A DNA stretch of 64,000 bases from Candidatus Microgenomates bacterium (GTDB lineage Bacteria > Patescibacteriota > Microgenomatia > Daviesbacterales > UBA10151), in the NCBI GenBank assembly GCA_016182045.1, contig JACOYE010000011.1:39-64038 (forward strand), in the 5' to 3' direction. The position numbers were made by a program, and so were the translations under genes. Below, one piece after another: positions 3,181 through 42,891 of the stretch. The notes beneath the pieces were generated by a model. That model saw nothing but the letters and a program-made list of their open reading frames with translations, searched no databases and had not been told where the DNA came from. The first letter of the stretch is position 1; each line of letters opens with the position of its first letter.

Positions 3181-3774
3181 ATGGCCAAGTTTCATTACCG
3201 AGAATCTCCCACACTAAAACAAAGAAAAGCTTTTGCTCCCTATCTTTCTGAAGATGAGGAATTGATTTTAGTGACAGGTTTTTCCAAAGCCTATACACGT
3301 TCCATGTTTACTTTATTCTTAGTTTTTCCTGGTTTAATTTTTGCTCTGGCAGGAGTAGGTATAGCTTGGCTTTTAGGACTTTCTAAACAAATGGCCATAA
3401 TTTTGGCAATTTCTTTGATGATATTTTCAGCACTGCTTAGAATCCTACATGTATACCATGCCAATCGCTATCTGCTTACCACCAGGCGGGTAATCATCAA
3501 AAAAGGTTTATTCTCTGTCAAACTAACCGCAGCTTTATATGATAAGATCACTCATTTAGAAGTAATTCAAGGTCTGATTGATAGATTTTTACTTCATCAC
3601 GGCACCATCATGGTCAATACTGCAGGTTTAAATAAGGGAGAAATTGTTTTAAAGTTTGTTGACTATCCAATGGAAATCAAAAATCTAATGGAGCGGCTTA
3701 TCAATAGGGAGCGGGAACAGTTTGGTTTAAGAGGAGCAACCATCACCGAAGTTGAAGGTGAAATCATTTCTTAG
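3181..3774 (+). CDS. Membrane-anchored bacterial PH domain protein (bPH_2/YdbT-like)
   Basis: Two TM helices followed by RRVIIKKGLFSVKLTAALYDKITHLEVIQGLIDRF..GTIMVNTAG, typical of DUF304/bPH_2. Confidence 0.55.
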   Translation: MAKFHYRESPTLKQRKAFAPYLSEDEELILVTGFSKAYTRSMFTLFLVFPGLIFALAGVGIAWLLGLSKQMAIILAISLMIFSALLRILHVYHANRYLLTTRRVIIKKGLFSVKLTAALYDKITHLEVIQGLIDRFLLHHGTIMVNTAGLNKGEIVLKFVDYPMEIKNLMERLINREREQFGLRGATITEVEGEIIS

Positions 3775-4399
3775 CCAAGTTCTCGTTGGGCATATCAGGA
3801 ATTTCCGGTAAGATTGTTAAGGGATTAATGTAGTTGCCATCTTTGGTAATTTCCAAATGGGTATGAGGACCGGAGGTGAATCCAGACAAACCAACCTCTC
3901 CGATGATGTTTTCAGATCTAACTTCTTGACCTTTCTTGATATAAATTCTTCCCATATGTCCATATAAAGACTTGAATCCTTCAGTATGAGAGATAATCAA
4001 ATGATTACCATAGCCCCAAAAGCTGAAATTGACCTGCTCCACAGTTCCGGCGGTAATGGGATGGATGGGCATTCCCAAGCCGGCGGCAATATCGACACCA
4101 GGGTGAGATCTGGAGAAAGATGTTGAGAGGTAACCGGGATGAGGTAAAACAACCGGTTGAGGAAAAGAAGAGGCAATGATGCCATCTTGCACCTGATTTT
4201 GAGCAAAAGAGGTGGAGAGTCTGACAGGTGGAAATGTCAAAGCCGGATAGTAGCCGAAAAAGAAAAGAAGCAAGGTGATAATTATGGTAAGTCGTTGAAA
4301 CCTTTTTGGAACCCTTGACTTGATGTTAAAAAATCTTTGAGTTAGGGCGACCCCTTCAAAAACTTTTCTAGGCAGAAGGTTTTGAATTTTCTCTTTCAA
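3764..4399 (-). CDS. M23 family metallopeptidase (LytM-like)
   Basis: HPGVDIAAGLGMPIHPITAGTV...GYGNHLIISHTEGFKSLYGHM...GLSGFTSGPHTHLEI contains the HxxxD and HxH M23 motifs. Confidence 0.8.
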   Translation of the reverse strand: MKEKIQNLLPRKVFEGVALTQRFFNIKSRVPKRFQRLTIIITLLLFFFGYYPALTFPPVRLSTSFAQNQVQDGIIASSFPQPVVLPHPGYLSTSFSRSHPGVDIAAGLGMPIHPITAGTVEQVNFSFWGYGNHLIISHTEGFKSLYGHMGRIYIKKGQEVRSENIIGEVGLSGFTSGPHTHLEITKDGNYINPLTILPEIPDMPNENLAKK

Positions 4400-23728: not shown

Positions 23729-23833
23729 CCATTTAACCTTTTCATAAAATTTTCCCAAAAAGAAGTCATTAAACATGTGAAAAAACAAACTCATAATTTA
23801 GATTATAGATTCTGAAACAAGTTCAGAATGACA

Positions 23834-24526
23834 TTAGAGAAGGTATATATCTACAAATTTTGCCCTCCAGCCTGCTGTTTTGGCATCGTCAAAGCCTAAG
23901 TCGATGATATTTCCTTTGATGGCTCCGCCTGTATCTCCTGCTATGGCTTGTCCGTATCCTGGGATATAAAGTTTAGATCTTAATGGTATTACTTTTGGAT
24001 CTACTGCAATTACACCTTTTCCAGCTTTTAGTCCTATGGCTGTTGTTTCATTACAACCTGGACAATGGGAATCATAGTGAGTAGCATAAACTCGCATCTT
24101 TTTCCAATAGCTAATTTGTCCATCAGGAGTATCTAAAGTTTTCCAGACGATTTTGGTGCCTCTTAAAATTTTTTTATCTTTTGGCTGAGTTGTCTCAACT
24201 GACACAATCTCCCTATCATATTCTTCACCATAATGGAAAGTAATTTTAATAATCTTTACTTGTTTACCATCCTCTCCTTCGTCAATAACTTTTTCTATCC
24301 CCGCTTCTTCTTCCGGATCATCTTCATAAATTACTTTCTTTAAGATAGTTTCTATTTCTTCTTCTAATTTTTCAGTAAATGAGGACTGGGTAGTAACAGG
24401 TTGGTTAATTGGTAGTGTTTCAGTTGGAGAGGGAGTGGAGTCTCCCAGAATTGTCGGAGATTGCCAAAAATTTTTGGCAAAAAAGGTGAGCCCTATTATT
24501 AGTAAGATCCCTAAGTATCTTTCCAT
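23834..24526 (-). CDS. G5 + 3D domain cell-wall protein (YabE/MltA 3D-domain family)
   Basis: AVDPKVIPLRSKLYIPGYGQAIAGDTGGAIKGNIIDLGFDD contains the three conserved Asp of the 3D domain. G5-like KITFHYGEEYDREIVSVETTQP lies upstream. Confidence 0.7.
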   Translation of the reverse strand: MERYLGILLIIGLTFFAKNFWQSPTILGDSTPSPTETLPINQPVTTQSSFTEKLEEEIETILKKVIYEDDPEEEAGIEKVIDEGEDGKQVKIIKITFHYGEEYDREIVSVETTQPKDKKILRGTKIVWKTLDTPDGQISYWKKMRVYATHYDSHCPGCNETTAIGLKAGKGVIAVDPKVIPLRSKLYIPGYGQAIAGDTGGAIKGNIIDLGFDDAKTAGWRAKFVDIYLL

Positions 24527-24560
24527 CCTTCGACTCCCTTCGGTCGCTCAGGACAAGTGG
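24527..24560. repeat. GC-rich palindromic element, family 2 (ccttcgactcc...gtcgctcagga), intergenic between helicase stop and 3D-gene start
   Basis: ccatccttcgactcccttcggtcgctcaggacaag. Same termini as copies at 40825, 41443, 42261, 42853 and 56343. Confidence 0.5.
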
Positions 24561-26552
24561 TCATACATTTAACCATTCTTCCTCATCAACTCCAGTATCC
24601 GTATCATCCAAGAATTGATCTGAATCTTTAAAAGTAGCATTTGATGAGATTAAGTGCTCAGGGATATCAGACAAGAAACGGGAAACCAGATTATTAGATC
24701 TTGTGCCAAAATATAATCTTTGTCTGGTATATGTTAAATATAACTTTTCCTTGGCCCGAGTAATCCCCACATAACAAAGCCTTCTTTCTTCCTCCAGTTC
24801 ATTAACATCAAGCATGGATCTAGAATGAGGGAACAATCCCTCCTCCATGCCTACTATAAAAACAACAGGAAACTCTAAACCTTTGGCAGAATGTAGGGTC
24901 ATTAAGGTTACTACATCTTGAGCTTGATTATTGGGGATGTTAGGGCGGCTAGGTAAATAGCCATTTTCCACCAAAGCTACATTTTCTAAAAAGTCTACTA
25001 AATTGGGAAATTCTTCTGCCACAGATCGAAGTTCTTTGACATTTTCCACCCGTCCCTTTCCTTCTTCAGTGCCATCATCTAAATATGTCAAGTAGCCTGT
25101 GACTTGTAGGATTTTATCCAGAAGCTCCATAGTGGTGTAACCACTTTCGTCATTGCGAGGAGACGTAGTCGACGAAGCAATCTCATTAACAAGATTGCCA
25201 CGCGAACTTCGTTCGCTCGCAATGACGTTTTGCAACTCCATTATTTTTGCAAGTCTGCCCTTACCAATTTTTTCTGCCCGCTTTAAGGAAACAGAATCTT
25301 TGGGATTTTGTAAAAGTCTTAAATAGGCAAGAACATCTTTAATTTCTTTTCTTTGATAAAAACTGACTCCACCGACTAATCTGTAAGGGACGCCCGATTT
25401 TAAAAATTGTTCCTCCAAAGACCTTGATTGGGCGTTAGTACGGTAGAGGATAGCAAAATCTGATAGCGGTTTGTTGTCATTGCGAGGAGACGTAGTCGAC
25501 GTGGCAATCTTTATTTTTGAGCCAGATTGCTTCGCTTCGCTCGCAATGACGTTTAAAATGAATAAAGTTTCCGCTACCTCATTTCTTACTTCCACCACTT
25601 CTATTTTTTCTCCTCCATCTTTTTGAGTCCAAAGTTTTAAAATTGGATGAGATTTATTTTTGGAAATAACAGCATGAGCTGCATCCAGGATGTTTTGAGT
25701 AGATCTATAATTTTGTTCAAGATTAAAAATTTTGGCATTGGGATAGTCTTTTTCAAAATTGACTATATTTCTAAAATCAGCTCCTCGGAATGAATATATG
25801 GACTGGCTTGCATCACCTACTACGCAAATGTTTTTATGACGGTTAGCCAAATATTTAGAAATTAAATATTGGGCAGGATTGGTATCCTGATATTCATCGA
25901 TTAAGATATATTTAAATTGGATTTGATATCTGGTTAAAATGGCTGGTTCTGTTTGAAAAAGCTGGATCACTTTTAATAGCAGATCATCAAAATCCAAAGC
26001 ATGATTTTTTTCCAAAATTTTCTGATATTCCAGATAAATTTTGGCCACAAGTTCCTGGAAAAAACCTCTGGCATATTGAGGATATTCTAAAGAAGAAATT
26101 AATTCATTTTTGGCCCCGGAGATGGTGGCCCGAACTGCAGAAGGGGAGGTTTTTTGAGTTGGAATATTTAAATTACCCATGGCTTCTTTGATAGCATCCA
26201 AAGCATCGGATTCATCATAAATAGCAAAGCCGGGAGGAAGCCCTAGCACTTTGCCTTCACGACGCAAGATTTTGGCACAGAAAGAATGGAATGTGCCCAT
26301 CACTGGTTGGGTGGGAAGATCGCCAATTAATTTTTTAATTCGCTCAATCATCTCTCCGCTGGCCTTATTTGTAAAAGTTAATACAAGTATATTTTCAGGT
26401 GGAATTTTCTTCTCAGAAATTAAGTAAGCCACTCTGTAGGTGAGTACTCTGGTTTTTCCAGAACCAGCTCCGGCTAAAATTAAAACTGGGCCTTCAGTTT
26501 GTTTGACAGCTTTTTGTTGAGCGGGATTTAGATCATCTAGGAGAGCAGACAT
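24561..26552 (-). CDS. UvrD/PcrA/Rep-family superfamily-1 DNA helicase (start moved to ATG at 26552, MSALLDDLNPAQ)
   Basis: LLDDLNPAQQ, Walker A GAGSGKT and motifs through TLHSAKGLEFPVVF...RRLCYVGITRAK. It carries two in-frame MITE-like inserts. Confidence 0.9.
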   Translation of the reverse strand: MSALLDDLNPAQQKAVKQTEGPVLILAGAGSGKTRVLTYRVAYLISEKKIPPENILVLTFTNKASGEMIERIKKLIGDLPTQPVMGTFHSFCAKILRREGKVLGLPPGFAIYDESDALDAIKEAMGNLNIPTQKTSPSAVRATISGAKNELISSLEYPQYARGFFQELVAKIYLEYQKILEKNHALDFDDLLLKVIQLFQTEPAILTRYQIQFKYILIDEYQDTNPAQYLISKYLANRHKNICVVGDASQSIYSFRGADFRNIVNFEKDYPNAKIFNLEQNYRSTQNILDAAHAVISKNKSHPILKLWTQKDGGEKIEVVEVRNEVAETLFILNVIASEAKQSGSKIKIATSTTSPRNDNKPLSDFAILYRTNAQSRSLEEQFLKSGVPYRLVGGVSFYQRKEIKDVLAYLRLLQNPKDSVSLKRAEKIGKGRLAKIMELQNVIASERSSRGNLVNEIASSTTSPRNDESGYTTMELLDKILQVTGYLTYLDDGTEEGKGRVENVKELRSVAEEFPNLVDFLENVALVENGYLPSRPNIPNNQAQDVVTLMTLHSAKGLEFPVVFIVGMEEGLFPHSRSMLDVNELEEERRLCYVGITRAKEKLYLTYTRQRLYFGTRSNNLVSRFLSDIPEHLISSNATFKDSDQFLDDTDTGVDEEEWLNV
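25149..25226 (-). mobile_element. 78-bp MITE-like palindromic element with 12-bp terminal inverted repeats (gtcattgcgag...ctcgcaatgac), in-frame in the helicase gene
   Basis: 78 bp = 26 codons, translated as VIASERSSRGNLVNEIASSTTSPRND. A second copy lies 337 bp away. Confidence 0.5.
25486..25560 (-). mobile_element. 75-bp second copy of the MITE-like element, in-frame in the helicase gene
   Basis: 75 bp = 25 codons, translated as VIASEAKQSGSKIKIATSTTSPRND. The first 26 nt and last 13 nt are identical to copy 1, and it has the nested gcaatct/agattgc inverted repeat. Confidence 0.5.
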
Positions 26553-26588
26553 GAAGCATATATTAACATTTGCCAGCAAAGTTGACAA

Positions 26589-26619
26589 AGTTTGTAAGAT
26601 TTCAGTTAAAATTTAGGTA
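26589..26619 (+). repeat. Direct repeat DR-A copy 1 (agtttgtaagatttcagttaaaatttaggta, 31 bp)
   Basis: Perfect identity with 27602-27632. Together the copies bracket the GC-rich segment. Confidence 0.9.
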
Positions 26620-26917
26620 AATTTTCAATGTTTGGAGGCTAAAGTATTGAAAAATATGTTAAAATATCATTGAAATCTTATGCCAGAAAGGATAAGGATC
26701 GTATTTCTACCTTCAGGACTACTCCGATAGAGGTAAATTACGAGCTATCAACACGGAAACAGAAGCACCAAAGCAGCCGCCGATAGAACGTTTAAAACGA
26801 CTCTTAGTAGGGTGGGCAAGGCGTGGTCGCACAGGGACAGAAGCAAATCCAGAACAACAGATATTAACTCCTGTCCGTCTTAAAGACTATCTTCTACAAG
26901 CAGCAAAAAGCCCATCG

Positions 26918-27601: not shown

Positions 27602-27632
27602 AGTTTGTAAGATTTCAGTTAAAATTTAGGTA
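27602..27632 (+). repeat. Direct repeat DR-A copy 2
   Basis: Identical 31-mer to 26589-26619. It abuts DR-B copy 1. Confidence 0.9.
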
Positions 27633-27633
27633 G

Positions 27634-27653
27634 TTTTCCCCTAGACAATTTTT
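27634..27653 (+). repeat. Direct repeat DR-B copy 1 (ttttcccctagacaattttt, 20 bp)
   Basis: Identical 20-mer at 28540-28559. The copies bracket the two-gene NTase cassette. Confidence 0.8.
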
Positions 27654-39524: not shown

Positions 39525-40499
39525 ATGAAAATTGTTAAGCCGCCTAAGTTAAATAAAGGAGATACTATTGGGATTGTGGCCTCATCTTTGCCGGTTTTAC
39601 CCTCATTTAGAGAAAACTATGAAAGAGGTAAGAAGGTGATTTATGATTTAGGATTTAAGATTTATGAAGGGGAAACAATTGGTAAGACTCGCTGGTGGAT
39701 GGCTGGTACACCAAAAGAAGTAGCTGACGATATTAATGCCATGTTTGCTAATAAAGATATTAGAGCCATCATGGCTCAAACTGGTGGATATTCAGCAATT
39801 TCTGTTTTAGAACATTTAGACTATGAACTAATAAGAAATAACCCAAAACCCTTCATAGGAATGTCTGATATGACTGCTTATCATTTGGCAATATTTTCAA
39901 AAACAGGCATGGTAGGATTTCATATGGATGATGTGACGTTTGGATTTGGTAGAGTTCCAAAAGAAGGGAAGGAAGACTGGGTAGAAATGGATAAGCAGTT
40001 TTTCTTAAAGTTTCTAACAAAAAATGAAGCCCCTGGAATCATAAAGCCAATTTCTGAGTGGGAAGAGTGGAAAAAAGGCAAAGCAGAGGGACATTTAATT
40101 GGAGGTATATTAGAATACCATCGGATTTTATCCGGTACAGAATATTTTCCAGAAGCGGGAGCTTTTGATGAAGCTGTATTTTTTTGGGAAGAAGTAGGAG
40201 TAACTTTGCATCATATAGCCACAACTTTATATAAGTTAAAATATATGGGAATTTTAGATAAAATTTCTGGAATGCTTATTGGTAAAATCAAATATATGAA
40301 GCCACCAAGAGAGGAAGAAATAAAAGAGCCAACAGCAAAAGAGATGGTTTTAGATATCTTAAAAGAATATGATTTTCCCATTATGGCCAATTTGGATTTT
40401 GGTCACTTTACAGTTAATATTCCTATGCCCATAGGTATAAAAGTTTCCTTTGATACCTCTAAAAAAGAGCTAAACTTCCTAGAATCAGCTGTAATTTAA
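39525..40499 (+). CDS. LD-carboxypeptidase (peptidase S66 family)
   Basis: IGIVASS..., GMSDMTAYH nucleophile motif, and C-terminal Glu/His region. Confidence 0.75.
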   Translation: MKIVKPPKLNKGDTIGIVASSLPVLPSFRENYERGKKVIYDLGFKIYEGETIGKTRWWMAGTPKEVADDINAMFANKDIRAIMAQTGGYSAISVLEHLDYELIRNNPKPFIGMSDMTAYHLAIFSKTGMVGFHMDDVTFGFGRVPKEGKEDWVEMDKQFFLKFLTKNEAPGIIKPISEWEEWKKGKAEGHLIGGILEYHRILSGTEYFPEAGAFDEAVFFWEEVGVTLHHIATTLYKLKYMGILDKISGMLIGKIKYMKPPREEEIKEPTAKEMVLDILKEYDFPIMANLDFGHFTVNIPMPIGIKVSFDTSKKELNFLESAVI

Positions 40500-41239
40500 C
40501 CTCTAATCACTTGGCAGTTGGGACATCTTAGGGAACCTGCCTCATAAATTTTGGCTTTTTGCAAGGATTGTTTAAAGGTCAATTTAGCGCCTTCCTTGAT
40601 TGCATATTGGCTATGACTGTTATCATGGGTTAATGTTCCATGGCCACGAATCAATTTGAATGTTATTTCTTCATCATCTTTAAAGATAATGGGCTCAATT
40701 TTTTGGGTAGTGTTATTAAAAGCCAGCCCAAAATCATCCTGGAAAGTTTGTCCTGTGATACTTTTAAAATAGCCTGTGGAGCCAAAAGGAGTTGCTAAAA
40801 CTACCCCATCTCCAATAAGTATAGATCCTTCGACTCCTCCGACGTGACGTCGGAGTCGCTCAGGATGACTGGGAACAGTCACCTGAAACCTGATAGCATG
40901 GACAGCCTCTTTATTTCTGATGACAAAATCATTTAATGCTAAAATAGTTTGATTTTCTACTTTAGTTTCCAATTTGGCATATTCTTTAACTTGTAATTTA
41001 TTTTGAGAAAGAGTTTTTAGTAGAACTTCTTCTTTATGCTCTGGACATTTTTTGTAAATTAAACTGTTTCTTATGGGAAGTTTGGGTATTCCTGGATAGT
41101 GTCTTTCTGAGGACAAAAGAGTACCATCACCTCCATAACTTATTACCACCTCAGGGTTAGAGGTGACTACCTCAAAGCCCAAGCTTTTTACCAAGGGCTC
41201 TATATTTTTTGAATACTTGCCATGTAATAATACTTTCAT
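40496..41239 (-). CDS. nadK: NAD kinase
   Basis: GGDGTLLS, NDFVIRN and ATPFGSTGY motifs. It contains an in-frame GC-rich palindrome (encodes RLRRHVGGVEGS). Confidence 0.85.
   Translation of the reverse strand: MKVLLHGKYSKNIEPLVKSLGFEVVTSNPEVVISYGGDGTLLSSERHYPGIPKLPIRNSLIYKKCPEHKEEVLLKTLSQNKLQVKEYAKLETKVENQTILALNDFVIRNKEAVHAIRFQVTVPSHPERLRRHVGGVEGSILIGDGVVLATPFGSTGYFKSITGQTFQDDFGLAFNNTTQKIEPIIFKDDEEITFKLIRGHGTLTHDNSHSQYAIKEGAKLTFKQSLQKAKIYEAGSLRCPNCQVIRG
40825..40868. repeat. GC-rich palindromic element, family 2, in-frame in nadK
   Basis: gatccttcgactcctccgacgtgacgtcggagtcgctcaggatgac. Nested palindromes: cgactcc/ggagtcg and the 17-bp perfect palindrome tccgacgtgacgtcgga. Confidence 0.6.
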
Positions 41240-41443: not shown

Positions 41444-41474
41444 TCCTCCGACTCCCTGCAGTCGCTCAGGATTG
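41443..41474. repeat. GC-rich palindromic element, family 2, in the hrcA leader
   Basis: gtcctccgactccctgcagtcgctcaggattg. Confidence 0.55.
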
Positions 41475-42260: not shown

Positions 42261-42297
42261 GATCCCTCGACTCGCTTCGCTCGCTCGGGATGACAAA
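42261..42297. repeat. GC-rich palindromic element, family 2 variant, intergenic hrcA-grpE
   Basis: gatccctcgactcgcttcgctcgctcgggatgacaaa. Confidence 0.55.
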
Positions 42298-42339: not shown

Positions 42340-42891
42340 ATGGCTAAGAAAGAAAACAAGGTTGAACAATTAGAGCAAAGAGTGGTTGAGCTGGAGAATC
42401 AGCTAAAAAGAGCAGTGGCTGATTATCATAATTTGGAGAAAAGAGTCAGTGAGGGAAGGTCTGAGTTAACAAATTATGTTGGAGCAGAGCTTTTAAGAAG
42501 GTTGATTCCTACTTTGGATCATTTGGAACAGGCTTTAGCTGGAGCAAGCGAGACAGATAAGCAGTCTGGATGGTTTAAGGGTATAGAGCTGGCTGTTAAA
42601 GAGTTTAAATATGTTTTACAATCTGAAGGGTTGGATGAAATTGCAGCAGACGGTCAATTTGATCCGGCCCTTCATGAGGCAGTTGACGTGAGGGTAATGC
42701 CGCCTTCGCTTGACAGCTCCGGCGAGCCAAAGGATAATATTATTTTGGAGGTAGTCAGGAAAGGTTACAGCTTAAATGGAAAAGTTTTAAGGCCGGCAGC
42801 AGTTGTAGTCGGCAGAAAGGATATAAATGAGCGGGGCGGACAATCTGAAATAGATCCTTCGCTAATCGCTCAGGATGACAAACAAATTTAA
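42340..42891 (+). CDS. grpE: Nucleotide exchange factor GrpE (start at ATG MAKKEN)
   Basis: Coiled-coil N-terminus. ...DHLEQAL..., ...FDPALHEAV... and the C-terminal beta domain. Confidence 0.9.
   Translation: MAKKENKVEQLEQRVVELENQLKRAVADYHNLEKRVSEGRSELTNYVGAELLRRLIPTLDHLEQALAGASETDKQSGWFKGIELAVKEFKYVLQSEGLDEIAADGQFDPALHEAVDVRVMPPSLDSSGEPKDNIILEVVRKGYSLNGKVLRPAAVVVGRKDINERGGQSEIDPSLIAQDDKQI
42853..42882. repeat. GC-rich element, family 2-like, forming the 3-prime end of grpE (encodes EIDPSLIAQDDKQI)
   Basis: gatccttcgctaatcgctcaggatgacaaa. Confidence 0.5.

Follow-up and report, generated by a model that had tools for sequence, protein, structure and literature searches.

We analysed a 64,000-nucleotide window of a Candidatus Microgenomates bacterium genome (contig JACOYE010000011.1; "the window" is this whole stretch) in which the gene of a UvrD/PcrA-type DNA helicase carries two similar palindromic segments. 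Each segment is probably an in-frame insertion of a non-autonomous repetitive extragenic palindromic (REP)-type element, namely an inverted dimer of two ~30-nt REP units bearing the tag of the CGTC super-family (Di Nocera, De Gregorio & Rocco 2013, BMC Genomics 14:522; PMC3733652). There appears to be good support for their having been inserted from a dispersed palindromic family, as opposed to being native to the helicase: most orthologues of the gene are empty and the element recurs in more than 240 unrelated loci. The host gene, the two copies and their repeats lie at the following window positions:

24561..26552, minus strand: coding sequence of a UvrD/PcrA-type superfamily-1 DNA helicase, 663 aa from ATG, host gene of both elements
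25148..25227, minus strand: copy A with tags (core 25149-25226, 78 bp), at site 2; covariance model 53.9 bits, E 4e-10
25475..25551, minus strand: copy B with tags (core 25476-25550, 75 bp), at site 1; covariance model 64.8 bits, E 1e-12
25149-25159 / 25216-25226 in copy A and 25476-25486 / 25540-25550 in copy B: terminal inverted repeat GTCATTGCGAG
25177-25183 / 25192-25198 in copy A and 25504-25510 / 25524-25530 in copy B: nested repeat GCAATCT/AGATTGC

A first-pass annotation of the sequence had described two copies of 78 and 75 bp with a nested inverted repeat, placed in the same orientation inside the helicase open reading frame (ORF), and this description stands: with the covariance model, copies A and B both score better on the minus strand, and the arm GAGACGTAGTCGACG is 94% identical over 35 nt. 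Some of its details changed. The terminal inverted repeat, given as 12 bp, is perfect over 11 nt in both copies and reaches 12 nt (c...g) in copy A only, and the copies lie not 337 bp apart but 327 bp from start to start, leaving a gap of 249 bp. The terminal sequence GTCATTGCGAG occurs exactly four times in the window, always as an element terminus, against 0.45 expected, and none of 100 shuffles reached that count. On the sense strand copy A is laid out as cGTC-ATTGCGAG-CGAACGAAGTTCGC-GTGGCAATCT-[8-nt loop]-AGATTGCTTC-GTCGACTACGTCTC-CTCGCAAT-GACg and copy B as cGTC-ATTGCGAG-CGAAGC-GAAGCAATCT-[13-nt loop]-AGATTGCCAC-GTCGACTACGTCTC-CTCGCAAT-GACa. Both lengths are multiples of three, and the reading frame runs through the elements without a stop codon, giving the minus-strand peptides VIASEAKQSGSKIKIATSTTSPRND in copy B (aa 335-359) and VIASERSSRGNLVNEIASSTTSPRND in copy A (aa 443-468). 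The in-frame repeat peptide reported earlier is therefore there, but the ending TSTTSPRND after VIASE is not common to both, the second peptide ending in SSTTSPRND.

The termini fit a division of each element into two units: all four carry a Y-GTC tag (cGTC three times, tGTC once) followed by AT, and the four units of the two copies share the arrangement GTC-AT-TGC...GCA-AT. The 3-nt tails of the window units are CTG, CTT, CTC and CTT, where the consensus of the wider family is GCAAT-CCA-G. Within a unit, the loop surrounds a conserved GAGCGAAGCGA(A); a sister ATCCT/AGGAT family (peptide VILSEAKDL) retains the same loop with a covarying stem and so supports the unit interpretation. As whole elements, copies A and B fold stably, at -41.7 and -28.8 kcal/mol as RNA (z -7.3 and -5.4 against shuffles), the RNA folding being a check that the first-pass annotation had proposed, and at -24 and -17.4 kcal/mol as DNA (z -5.9 and -5.0). 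The elements also stand apart in composition, with a GC content of 0.49-0.50 against 0.37 in the remainder of the helicase gene and 0.38 in the window.

Several other kinds of structured sequence were considered and dropped. Hammerhead and other ribozymes, integron attC sites, dif/Xer sites, retrons and tRNA-like structures were set aside on anatomy, as the core motifs and an adjacent integrase or reverse transcriptase are absent and no Rfam family matches the elements at gathering or E-value thresholds (window and 18 locus scans). An intrinsic terminator was discarded because the terminator scan flagged neither element on either strand. A literature search by the literal DNA termini and the encoded peptides matched only primers and unrelated words.

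The ORF of the host gene extends mechanically up to a TTG at 26588, and its product contains the Pfam domains UvrD-helicase (1.5e-90) and UvrD_C (1.9e-66), aligns to PcrA (1PJR) with E 4e-165, and is 100% identical to an NCBI entry named 'Candidatus Microgenomates bacterium', its relatives being named Daviesbacteria, of the candidate phyla radiation (CPR/Patescibacteria). The helicase motifs are intact despite both in-frame inserts. Site 1 (aa 335-359) is the loop directly before motif IV (AILYRTNAQSR), and the PcrA alignment has a gap opposite aa 342-356 of this insert; site 2 (aa 443-468) falls in the region aligning to the PcrA 2B domain, in a poorly aligned part of it. An AlphaFold model made with 60 close orthologues shows residues 342-359 and 452-465 of the inserts as coil with a predicted local distance difference test (pLDDT) score below 50, the whole model being poor (mean pLDDT 61, predicted template modelling score 0.40).

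Two further features of the gene and its upstream edge were seen. The only nearby Rfam match, to RF03531 (n00280, 'C. difficile sRNA included into helicase gene') at 24721-24815 on the minus strand, stays below the gathering threshold of 65.2 with 59 bits; it covers conserved coding sequence of the helicase and has nothing to do with the elements. A 36-nt direct repeat, AGTTTGTAAGATTTCAGTTAAAATTTAGGTAAATTT, occurs at 26589-26624, directly upstream of the helicase start, and again ~1 kb off at 27602-27637 with 94% identity, its first copy belonging to a 35-nt imperfect inverted repeat at 26595-26680.

The comparison with orthologues that the first-pass annotation had proposed showed that most of them lack the inserts. 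Among 118 aligned Daviesbacteria helicases (72-83% identity), 67 were empty at site 1 and 91 at site 2 by our own classification, the baseline empty-site sequences being ...ALFILSQIDK-TKLSDYAILYRTNAQ and ...MELYSEISNNLDQYSTLELLD, and the two sites account for nearly all internal length variation. Occupancy is clearly patchy. Parsimony gives 36 changes of state at site 1 and 27 at site 2 on a neighbour-joining tree of the masked alignment, which is a weak tree on which the absolute numbers depend. Five or more palindromic families, unrelated to one another, share the two loops; some orthologues have only a short remnant there (VIASERSSRGN, for instance) and others nothing. Peptides that fill the loops in other species include VILSEAKDL...QND, VIPAEAGI...SGMT, SLRGASE...GLGMT, HLRGEKM...HLGGV and VHSSEF...NSELRTL. 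The table of Di Nocera and colleagues (PMC3733652) contains peptides (VIPAKAGI, ...IPAFAGMT, VIAGLDPAI) that match families found in these loops.

Junctions were analysed in the syntenic DNA of six orthologues (L201-L206), the metagenome relatives, mostly 42-54% identical, being unsuited. Both sites are empty in L201; L202 is empty at site 1 and holds at site 2 a canonical CGTC-1 dimer, tGTC-ATTCCCGC-GGAA-GCGGGAAT-CCA, with the peptide VIPAEAGI...SGMT. The element family of the window is found at site 1 in P0002/L203 and at site 2 in P0012/L205 and P0028/L206, in orthologous elements of 78, 99 and 84 nt, and site 1 of P0007/L204 retains only a 5' half-remnant, identical to the 5' unit of window copy A. 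Because each site also holds the same family in other species, the occupancies would be old, and we infer that the insertions are old and selectively near-neutral and do not reflect a recent intragenic duplication. The earlier idea of repeated duplication or insertion within one gene without disruption thus holds for the in-frame inserts and the intact motifs, but a recent date for these events is not shown, the same sites being shared by other species. Both window copies have in common a private arm variant, GTCGACTACGTCTC, lacking from the orthologous copies in L203, L205 and L206; an exchange of sequence between the window copies, by gene conversion or from a common local donor, would explain it.

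A non-CGTC palindrome, CACCTCCGAGGTG...CACCTCGGAGGTG (peptide HLRGE...HLGGV), fills the site 1 loop in many Daviesbacteria (P0006, P0009, P0022, P0027 and others; L205 10001-12007), and another loop-filling family encodes VHSSEF...NSELRTL. Intein-bearing thioredoxin genes (PF14890 and PF00085) adjoin the helicase in L204 (6950-8539), L205 (8223-9923) and L206 (8328-9923), and two helicase orthologues, P0033 and P0113 (1082 and 977 aa), have inteins of their own. A gene for a reverse transcriptase (RVT_1) lies at 5620-6627 of L205.

The orthologous elements allowed conservation of nucleotides and of amino acids to be separated. Among codons with identical amino acids, 81-93% were identical also as codons in the elements, the figure for the background of the gene being 47-55% (Fisher's test, p = 0.03, 0.0006 and 0.006), and the element middle is hypervariable, being more diverged than the helicase gene. 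Because codon identity exceeds the background while the middle outdiverges the gene, what is conserved is the nucleotide sequence of the arms and not the peptide. The side-arm hairpin covaries in five Daviesbacteria helicase copies (GAC/GTC, CTCCGAC/GTCGGAG, GCCCCGTACCG/CGGTACGGGGC). Conservation of the termini beyond the synonymous background, compensatory changes in the side arm and very stable RNA folds could also be expected of domesticated cis-acting mRNA or DNA hairpins that regulate the helicase through mRNA stability or processing, inter-domain translational pausing or the binding of a host factor, with the peptides as a by-product, and the published view is that many REPs work as RNA elements (PMC3733652). 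We nevertheless consider such a role improbable: most orthologues lack an insert and others have unrelated palindromes or half-remnants at the same sites, neither strand resembles a terminator and no Rfam family matches, and a mobilising enzyme that recognises the termini, or recent conversion, would lead one to expect the same conservation of the termini.

The repeated variation of both loops across Daviesbacteria would also suit adaptive protein loops that alter helicase activity or partner binding, a view that includes the published speculation on a mutator phenotype for REP-decorated repair proteins. In earlier work, genes of replication and repair, UvrD/REP helicases included, appeared to have REP insertions in excess (PMC3733652), which speaks for the same view. 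Against it, the peptides are of low complexity and wholly different between families that fill one loop, and the element has a hypervariable middle and is conserved, where it is conserved, at the nucleotide level. Moreover, no helicase-like ORF contains any of the 267 family members sampled from other taxa, and a related unit in an NAD-kinase-like gene of the window indicates that coding insertion is not specific to the helicase. We regard adaptation of the loops as more improbable still than a regulatory hairpin. If the segments are instead insertions of REP-type dimers, as we prefer, their persistence may be explained by the Ser/Thr/Lys-rich peptides sitting in what the model and alignment suggest are flexible surface loops, and by gene-dense CPR genomes offering few other tolerated sites.

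Neither the covariance model (R1) nor the search with GTCATTGCGAG revealed a further copy of this ATTGC family in the window; more copies were found in many phyla. We searched one genome per species, plus IMG/VR viral contigs, with the pattern GTCATTGCGAG-N40-70-CTCGCAATGAC and obtained at least 120 loci in genome contigs and further matches in viral contigs. Among the matches listed, the hosts include Bradyrhizobium, many sphingomonads, Rickettsiales and Micavibrio; Coxiellaceae and other Gammaproteobacteria, Burkholderiales and Deltaproteobacteria; Bacteroidota (Pedobacter, Mucilaginibacter, Flavobacterium) and, further, Chloroflexi, Planctomycetota, Cyanobacteria (Microcoleus), Patescibacteria and Berkelbacteria, and several of the listed loci of 8-14 kb hold two or three copies. 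At least 40 matching pieces come from a Novosphingobium replicon.

The internal consensus of these members, CGnAGCGAAGCAATCCAG...CTGGATTGCTTCG, was not imposed by the search pattern; in full it reads nCGTCATTGCGAG-CGnAGC-GAAGCAATCCAG...CTGGATTGCTTC-GTCGCnnnGnTC-CTCGCAATGACGn. GCAATC/GATTGC is invariant or near-invariant in 72 aligned members, with which both window copies align end to end, and one arm is often swapped for an unrelated perfect hairpin, such as GGCCCCTTCGGGGCC or CCCACCTCCTTGCAGGTGGG. At least 124 database members and both window elements are inverted unit pairs around a variable centre of 8-40 nt. Lengths modulo 3 are uniform in the wider family (45:44:35), and most copies are thus not under coding constraint, while the length of every intragenic copy is a multiple of three. 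In 265 of the members listed, the position before the element is C or T in 252 and the position after it is a purine (G or A) in 259, with covariation between these positions (C:G in 158, T:A in 54).

A Patescibacteria metagenome-assembled genome (JAQVNC010000011.1) provides a separate coding case. The last 30 residues (SLRGSLATKQSPVSRNKSEIASLPSVARNDRQF*) of a multi-pass membrane protein of 524 aa come from a member of the ATTGC family at 3703-3793 of its locus L014, and the following intergenic gap has another copy at a distance of 2.2 kb.

The first-pass annotation called the segments MITE-like, that is, similar to miniature inverted-repeat transposable elements, and a dispersed palindromic family inserted into a gene is indeed what they seem to be. 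Classical MITEs would be deletion derivatives of insertion sequences (IS), moved by a DDE transposase through their terminal repeats and generating target-site duplications, and the perfect 11-nt terminal repeats, the lengths of 75-78 bp, the stable hairpins and the AAC on either flank of copy B (sense strand) are compatible with that origin. Yet copy B alone among the helicase copies has an AAC...AAC flank, and target-site duplications, which the annotation had suggested looking for, did not emerge from the comparison of filled and empty sites; nor did any flanking direct repeat of 2-8 bp at offsets 0-2 exceed the permutation expectation in 265 of the members listed. The whole element, not its ends only, is conserved and palindromic, and the 3,580 ORFs lying no more than 3 kb from 267 elements (240 loci) included no recurrent transposase-like gene. 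On this evidence, an origin as classical MITEs is the least probable of the explanations that we weighed.

For REP-type dimers, mobilisation would take place in trans and without target duplication. The most plausible route, which we suggest only tentatively, would lead through a hairpin of single-stranded DNA; an HUH/Y1-type enzyme, similar to those of IS200/IS605 or to a REP-associated tyrosine transposase (RAYT), or one not yet recognised, would cut this intermediate at the tag. No Y1-transposase-like ORF was found in the window or related loci (~210 kb of CPR sequence), the query being an IS608 TnpA sequence and the test a weak one, nor among the ORFs near elements in other taxa, and no mobilising enzyme is known for CGTC elements (PMC3733652). 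Current activity of the family in the source genome is unproven.

The recurrent ORF clusters near the elements look, from their sequences, like phage or gene-transfer-agent structural genes. A bolder and, in our view, unlikely reading is that the GTCATTGCGAG...GCAATC...GATTGC...CTCGCAATGAC hairpin is one horizontally spreading family, maybe borne by phages or gene-transfer agents. On this reading the two helicase loops of Daviesbacteria would be more than tolerated sites: elements would land or convert there by preference, with one family taking the place of another. If a horizontal family with arms near-identical from Alphaproteobacteria to CPR and with no enzyme encoded in cis did exist, it would imply a largely host-independent insertion of structured DNA, for which hairpin capture at replication forks or an unrecognised ubiquitous nuclease would be candidate routes.

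Beyond the helicase gene, the window contains single units and degenerate relatives:

23809..23832, minus strand: single REP unit of canonical CGTC type, tGTC-ATTCTGAA-CTTGT-TTCAGAAT-cta, directly 3' of the ORF 23834..24526 (minus strand)
24525..24554, minus strand: degenerate REP-like unit GTCCTGAGCGACCGAAGGGAGTCGAAGGAT, directly 3' of the helicase stop; one of a three-copy family with 41444-41471 and 42263-42290
40825..40869, minus strand: single REP-like unit, aGTC-ATCCT-GAGCGA-CTCCGAC-GTCAC-GTCGGAG-GAGTCGA-AGGAT-cta, inside the NAD-kinase-like ORF 40496..41239 (minus strand)
42262..42294, minus strand: single REP-like unit, tGTC-ATCCC-GAGCGAGCGAAGCGAGTCGA-GGGAT-ctc, intergenic, upstream of a grpE-like ORF
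42854-42879, minus strand: sister REP-like unit, upstream of a dnaK-like ORF

Apart from the unit inside the NAD-kinase-like ORF, these single or degenerate CGTC-like units sit at gene ends and in intergenic regions of hrcA-, grpE- and dnaK-like genes, and the single units have the same Y-GTC tag, a stem starting with AT (ATCCT, ATCCC, ATTCT) and a CTN tail. The unit at 23809-23832 has an 8-bp stem and a 5-nt loop, as in the published CGTC geometry (stem 8-9 bp, loop 4-5 nt; PMC3733652), and folds as DNA at -5.3 kcal/mol (z -3.6). In the NAD-kinase-like protein, the unit at 40825-40869 contributes the in-frame peptide SHPERLRRHVGGVEGS, which closely precedes the GDGVVLATPFGSTGY motif; distant PDB homologues have structured sequence, not a gap, opposite this stretch. 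A generic regular expression, 'GTCAT + 5-bp stem', found seven units where 4.7 were expected and is too permissive alone; the seven are credible because they share tags, tails and loop motif. The grpE- and dnaK-side units are each followed by a conserved 69-nt stretch (72% identical) that runs into the ORF start and contains an inverted repeat, GACAAAATGCG...CGCATTTTGTC and GACAAACAAATT...AATTTGTTTGTC.

A number of observations weigh against the interpretation as inserted dimers of CGTC-type REP units. With ATTGC/GCAAT as its stem, a unit pairs over just 5 bp around a loop of 12-20 nt, unlike the published 8-9 bp and 4-5 nt. Folded singly as DNA, the units reach -2.3 to -8.6 kcal/mol, three of the four doing no better than shuffles, and the stable hairpin is formed by the whole dimer only. 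Of the ATTGC family, the 64 kb of the window contain just two copies. Applied to ~175 kb of Daviesbacteria DNA, the covariance model gave five strong matches, all in the helicase gene of loci chosen for helicase inserts, so that this is not an unbiased enrichment, and one weaker match to an intergenic dimer (L205 21851-21932, 31 bits); multi-copy dispersal within the source genome is not demonstrated by these sequences. A filled site does not equal an empty site plus the element, as about five loop codons are replaced, and a clean insertion event is not reconstructable. The placement of the inserts in surface loops rests on the PcrA sequence alignment and the poor AlphaFold model. Finally, VIASEAKQS is absent from the list of intragenic-element peptides in PMC3733652, and membership in one of the four named CGTC families is unproven.

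The occurrence of palindromes of the REP type and of the Rickettsia palindromic element (RPE) type in frame in repair genes is an already described phenomenon. Three aspects are new: the host lineage is CPR; the family, unlisted in the catalogue of 2013, hardly differs from phylum to phylum and also occurs in viral contigs; and five or more palindromic families have turned over in the same two helicase loops. In-frame palindromic selfish DNA, known as RPEs in Rickettsia and then as GTAG and CGTC REPs, would colonise also the genes of tiny, gene-dense CPR genomes. The two loops in 118 orthologues form a compact natural experiment on the gain, replacement and erosion of elements and on which protein loops tolerate ~25 extra residues. 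In practice, such segments exaggerate length variation, give rise to spurious 'protein repeats' and may lead the annotation of domains and the alignment of CPR proteins astray. Near-identity across phyla with no known transposase sharpens the question, posed in 2013, of what mobilises CGTC elements.

Among known systems, the bacterial MITEs (Correia/NEMIS, ERIC, RUP, Nezha) resemble the window elements in having terminal inverted repeats, a length below 200 bp, no coding capacity of their own, stable RNA folds and occasional in-frame fusions (PMC3184786). MITEs are, however, defined by target-site duplication and descent from IS (PMC3184786); neither is seen in the present elements, near which no candidate parental IS or cognate transposase came to light. 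Closer in form is the REPIN/RAYT system of GTAG-tagged REP doublets and a Y1 HUH transposase: it too consists of inverted doublets of short palindromes that form a long hairpin, shows no target duplication and is mobilised in trans, presumably as single-stranded DNA, as we propose for the window elements. It differs in its tag, which is GTAG and not CGTC or TGTC, in its unit-flanked RAYT gene, which has no counterpart in the sequence examined, and in being described as vertically inherited and lineage-specific, whereas the window family is nearly identical across phyla.

The RPEs, reportedly introduced by Ogata et al. in 2000, are likewise palindromic repeats lying in frame in conserved genes of small genomes, with orthologues that lack them, and both they and the window elements are thought to be tolerated in surface loops. 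RPE-1, at ~105-146 bp, appears unrelated in sequence, and the window family seems to differ also from the only two RPEs that have been equated with CGTC families and is not confined to one genus. According to PMC3733652, these two are RPE-6, which is CGTC-1, and RPE-4, which is CGTC-4.

The nearest counterpart is the CGTC-tagged REP itself. In PMC3733652 it is defined by an unpaired terminal CGTC, often TGTC (a CCTC variant being allowed), stems starting with A-T and a 3-nt tail that is mostly CCA; the units are mostly inverted dimers with variable spacers, found in several phyla with Alphaproteobacteria dominant and with no dedicated transposase, and CGTC and GTAG REPs lie in frame in UvrD/REP helicase, UvrABC, RecBCD, PolA and DnaE2. 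Apart from the unit geometry, the window elements differ in a sequence family and a CPR/Patescibacteria host outside the lists of that paper, and in this AT-rich genome they have a CTN tail and not the CCA that is also the consensus of their wider family. They agree with it in the outer Y-GTC tag, the A-T start of the stem, inverted dimers foldable as one long hairpin, variable spacers and apical parts, the lack of an adjacent transposase, a spread over several phyla with Alphaproteobacteria prominent, and in-frame occurrence in repair genes including the UvrD/REP helicase, where L202 even has a CGTC-1 dimer in the same loop. Because the tag, the AT-start stem, the inverted dimer, the missing transposase and the in-frame occurrence in a repair gene all match, the elements are best filed not as MITEs but as CGTC-type REP dimers of a family unlisted in the 2013 catalogue.

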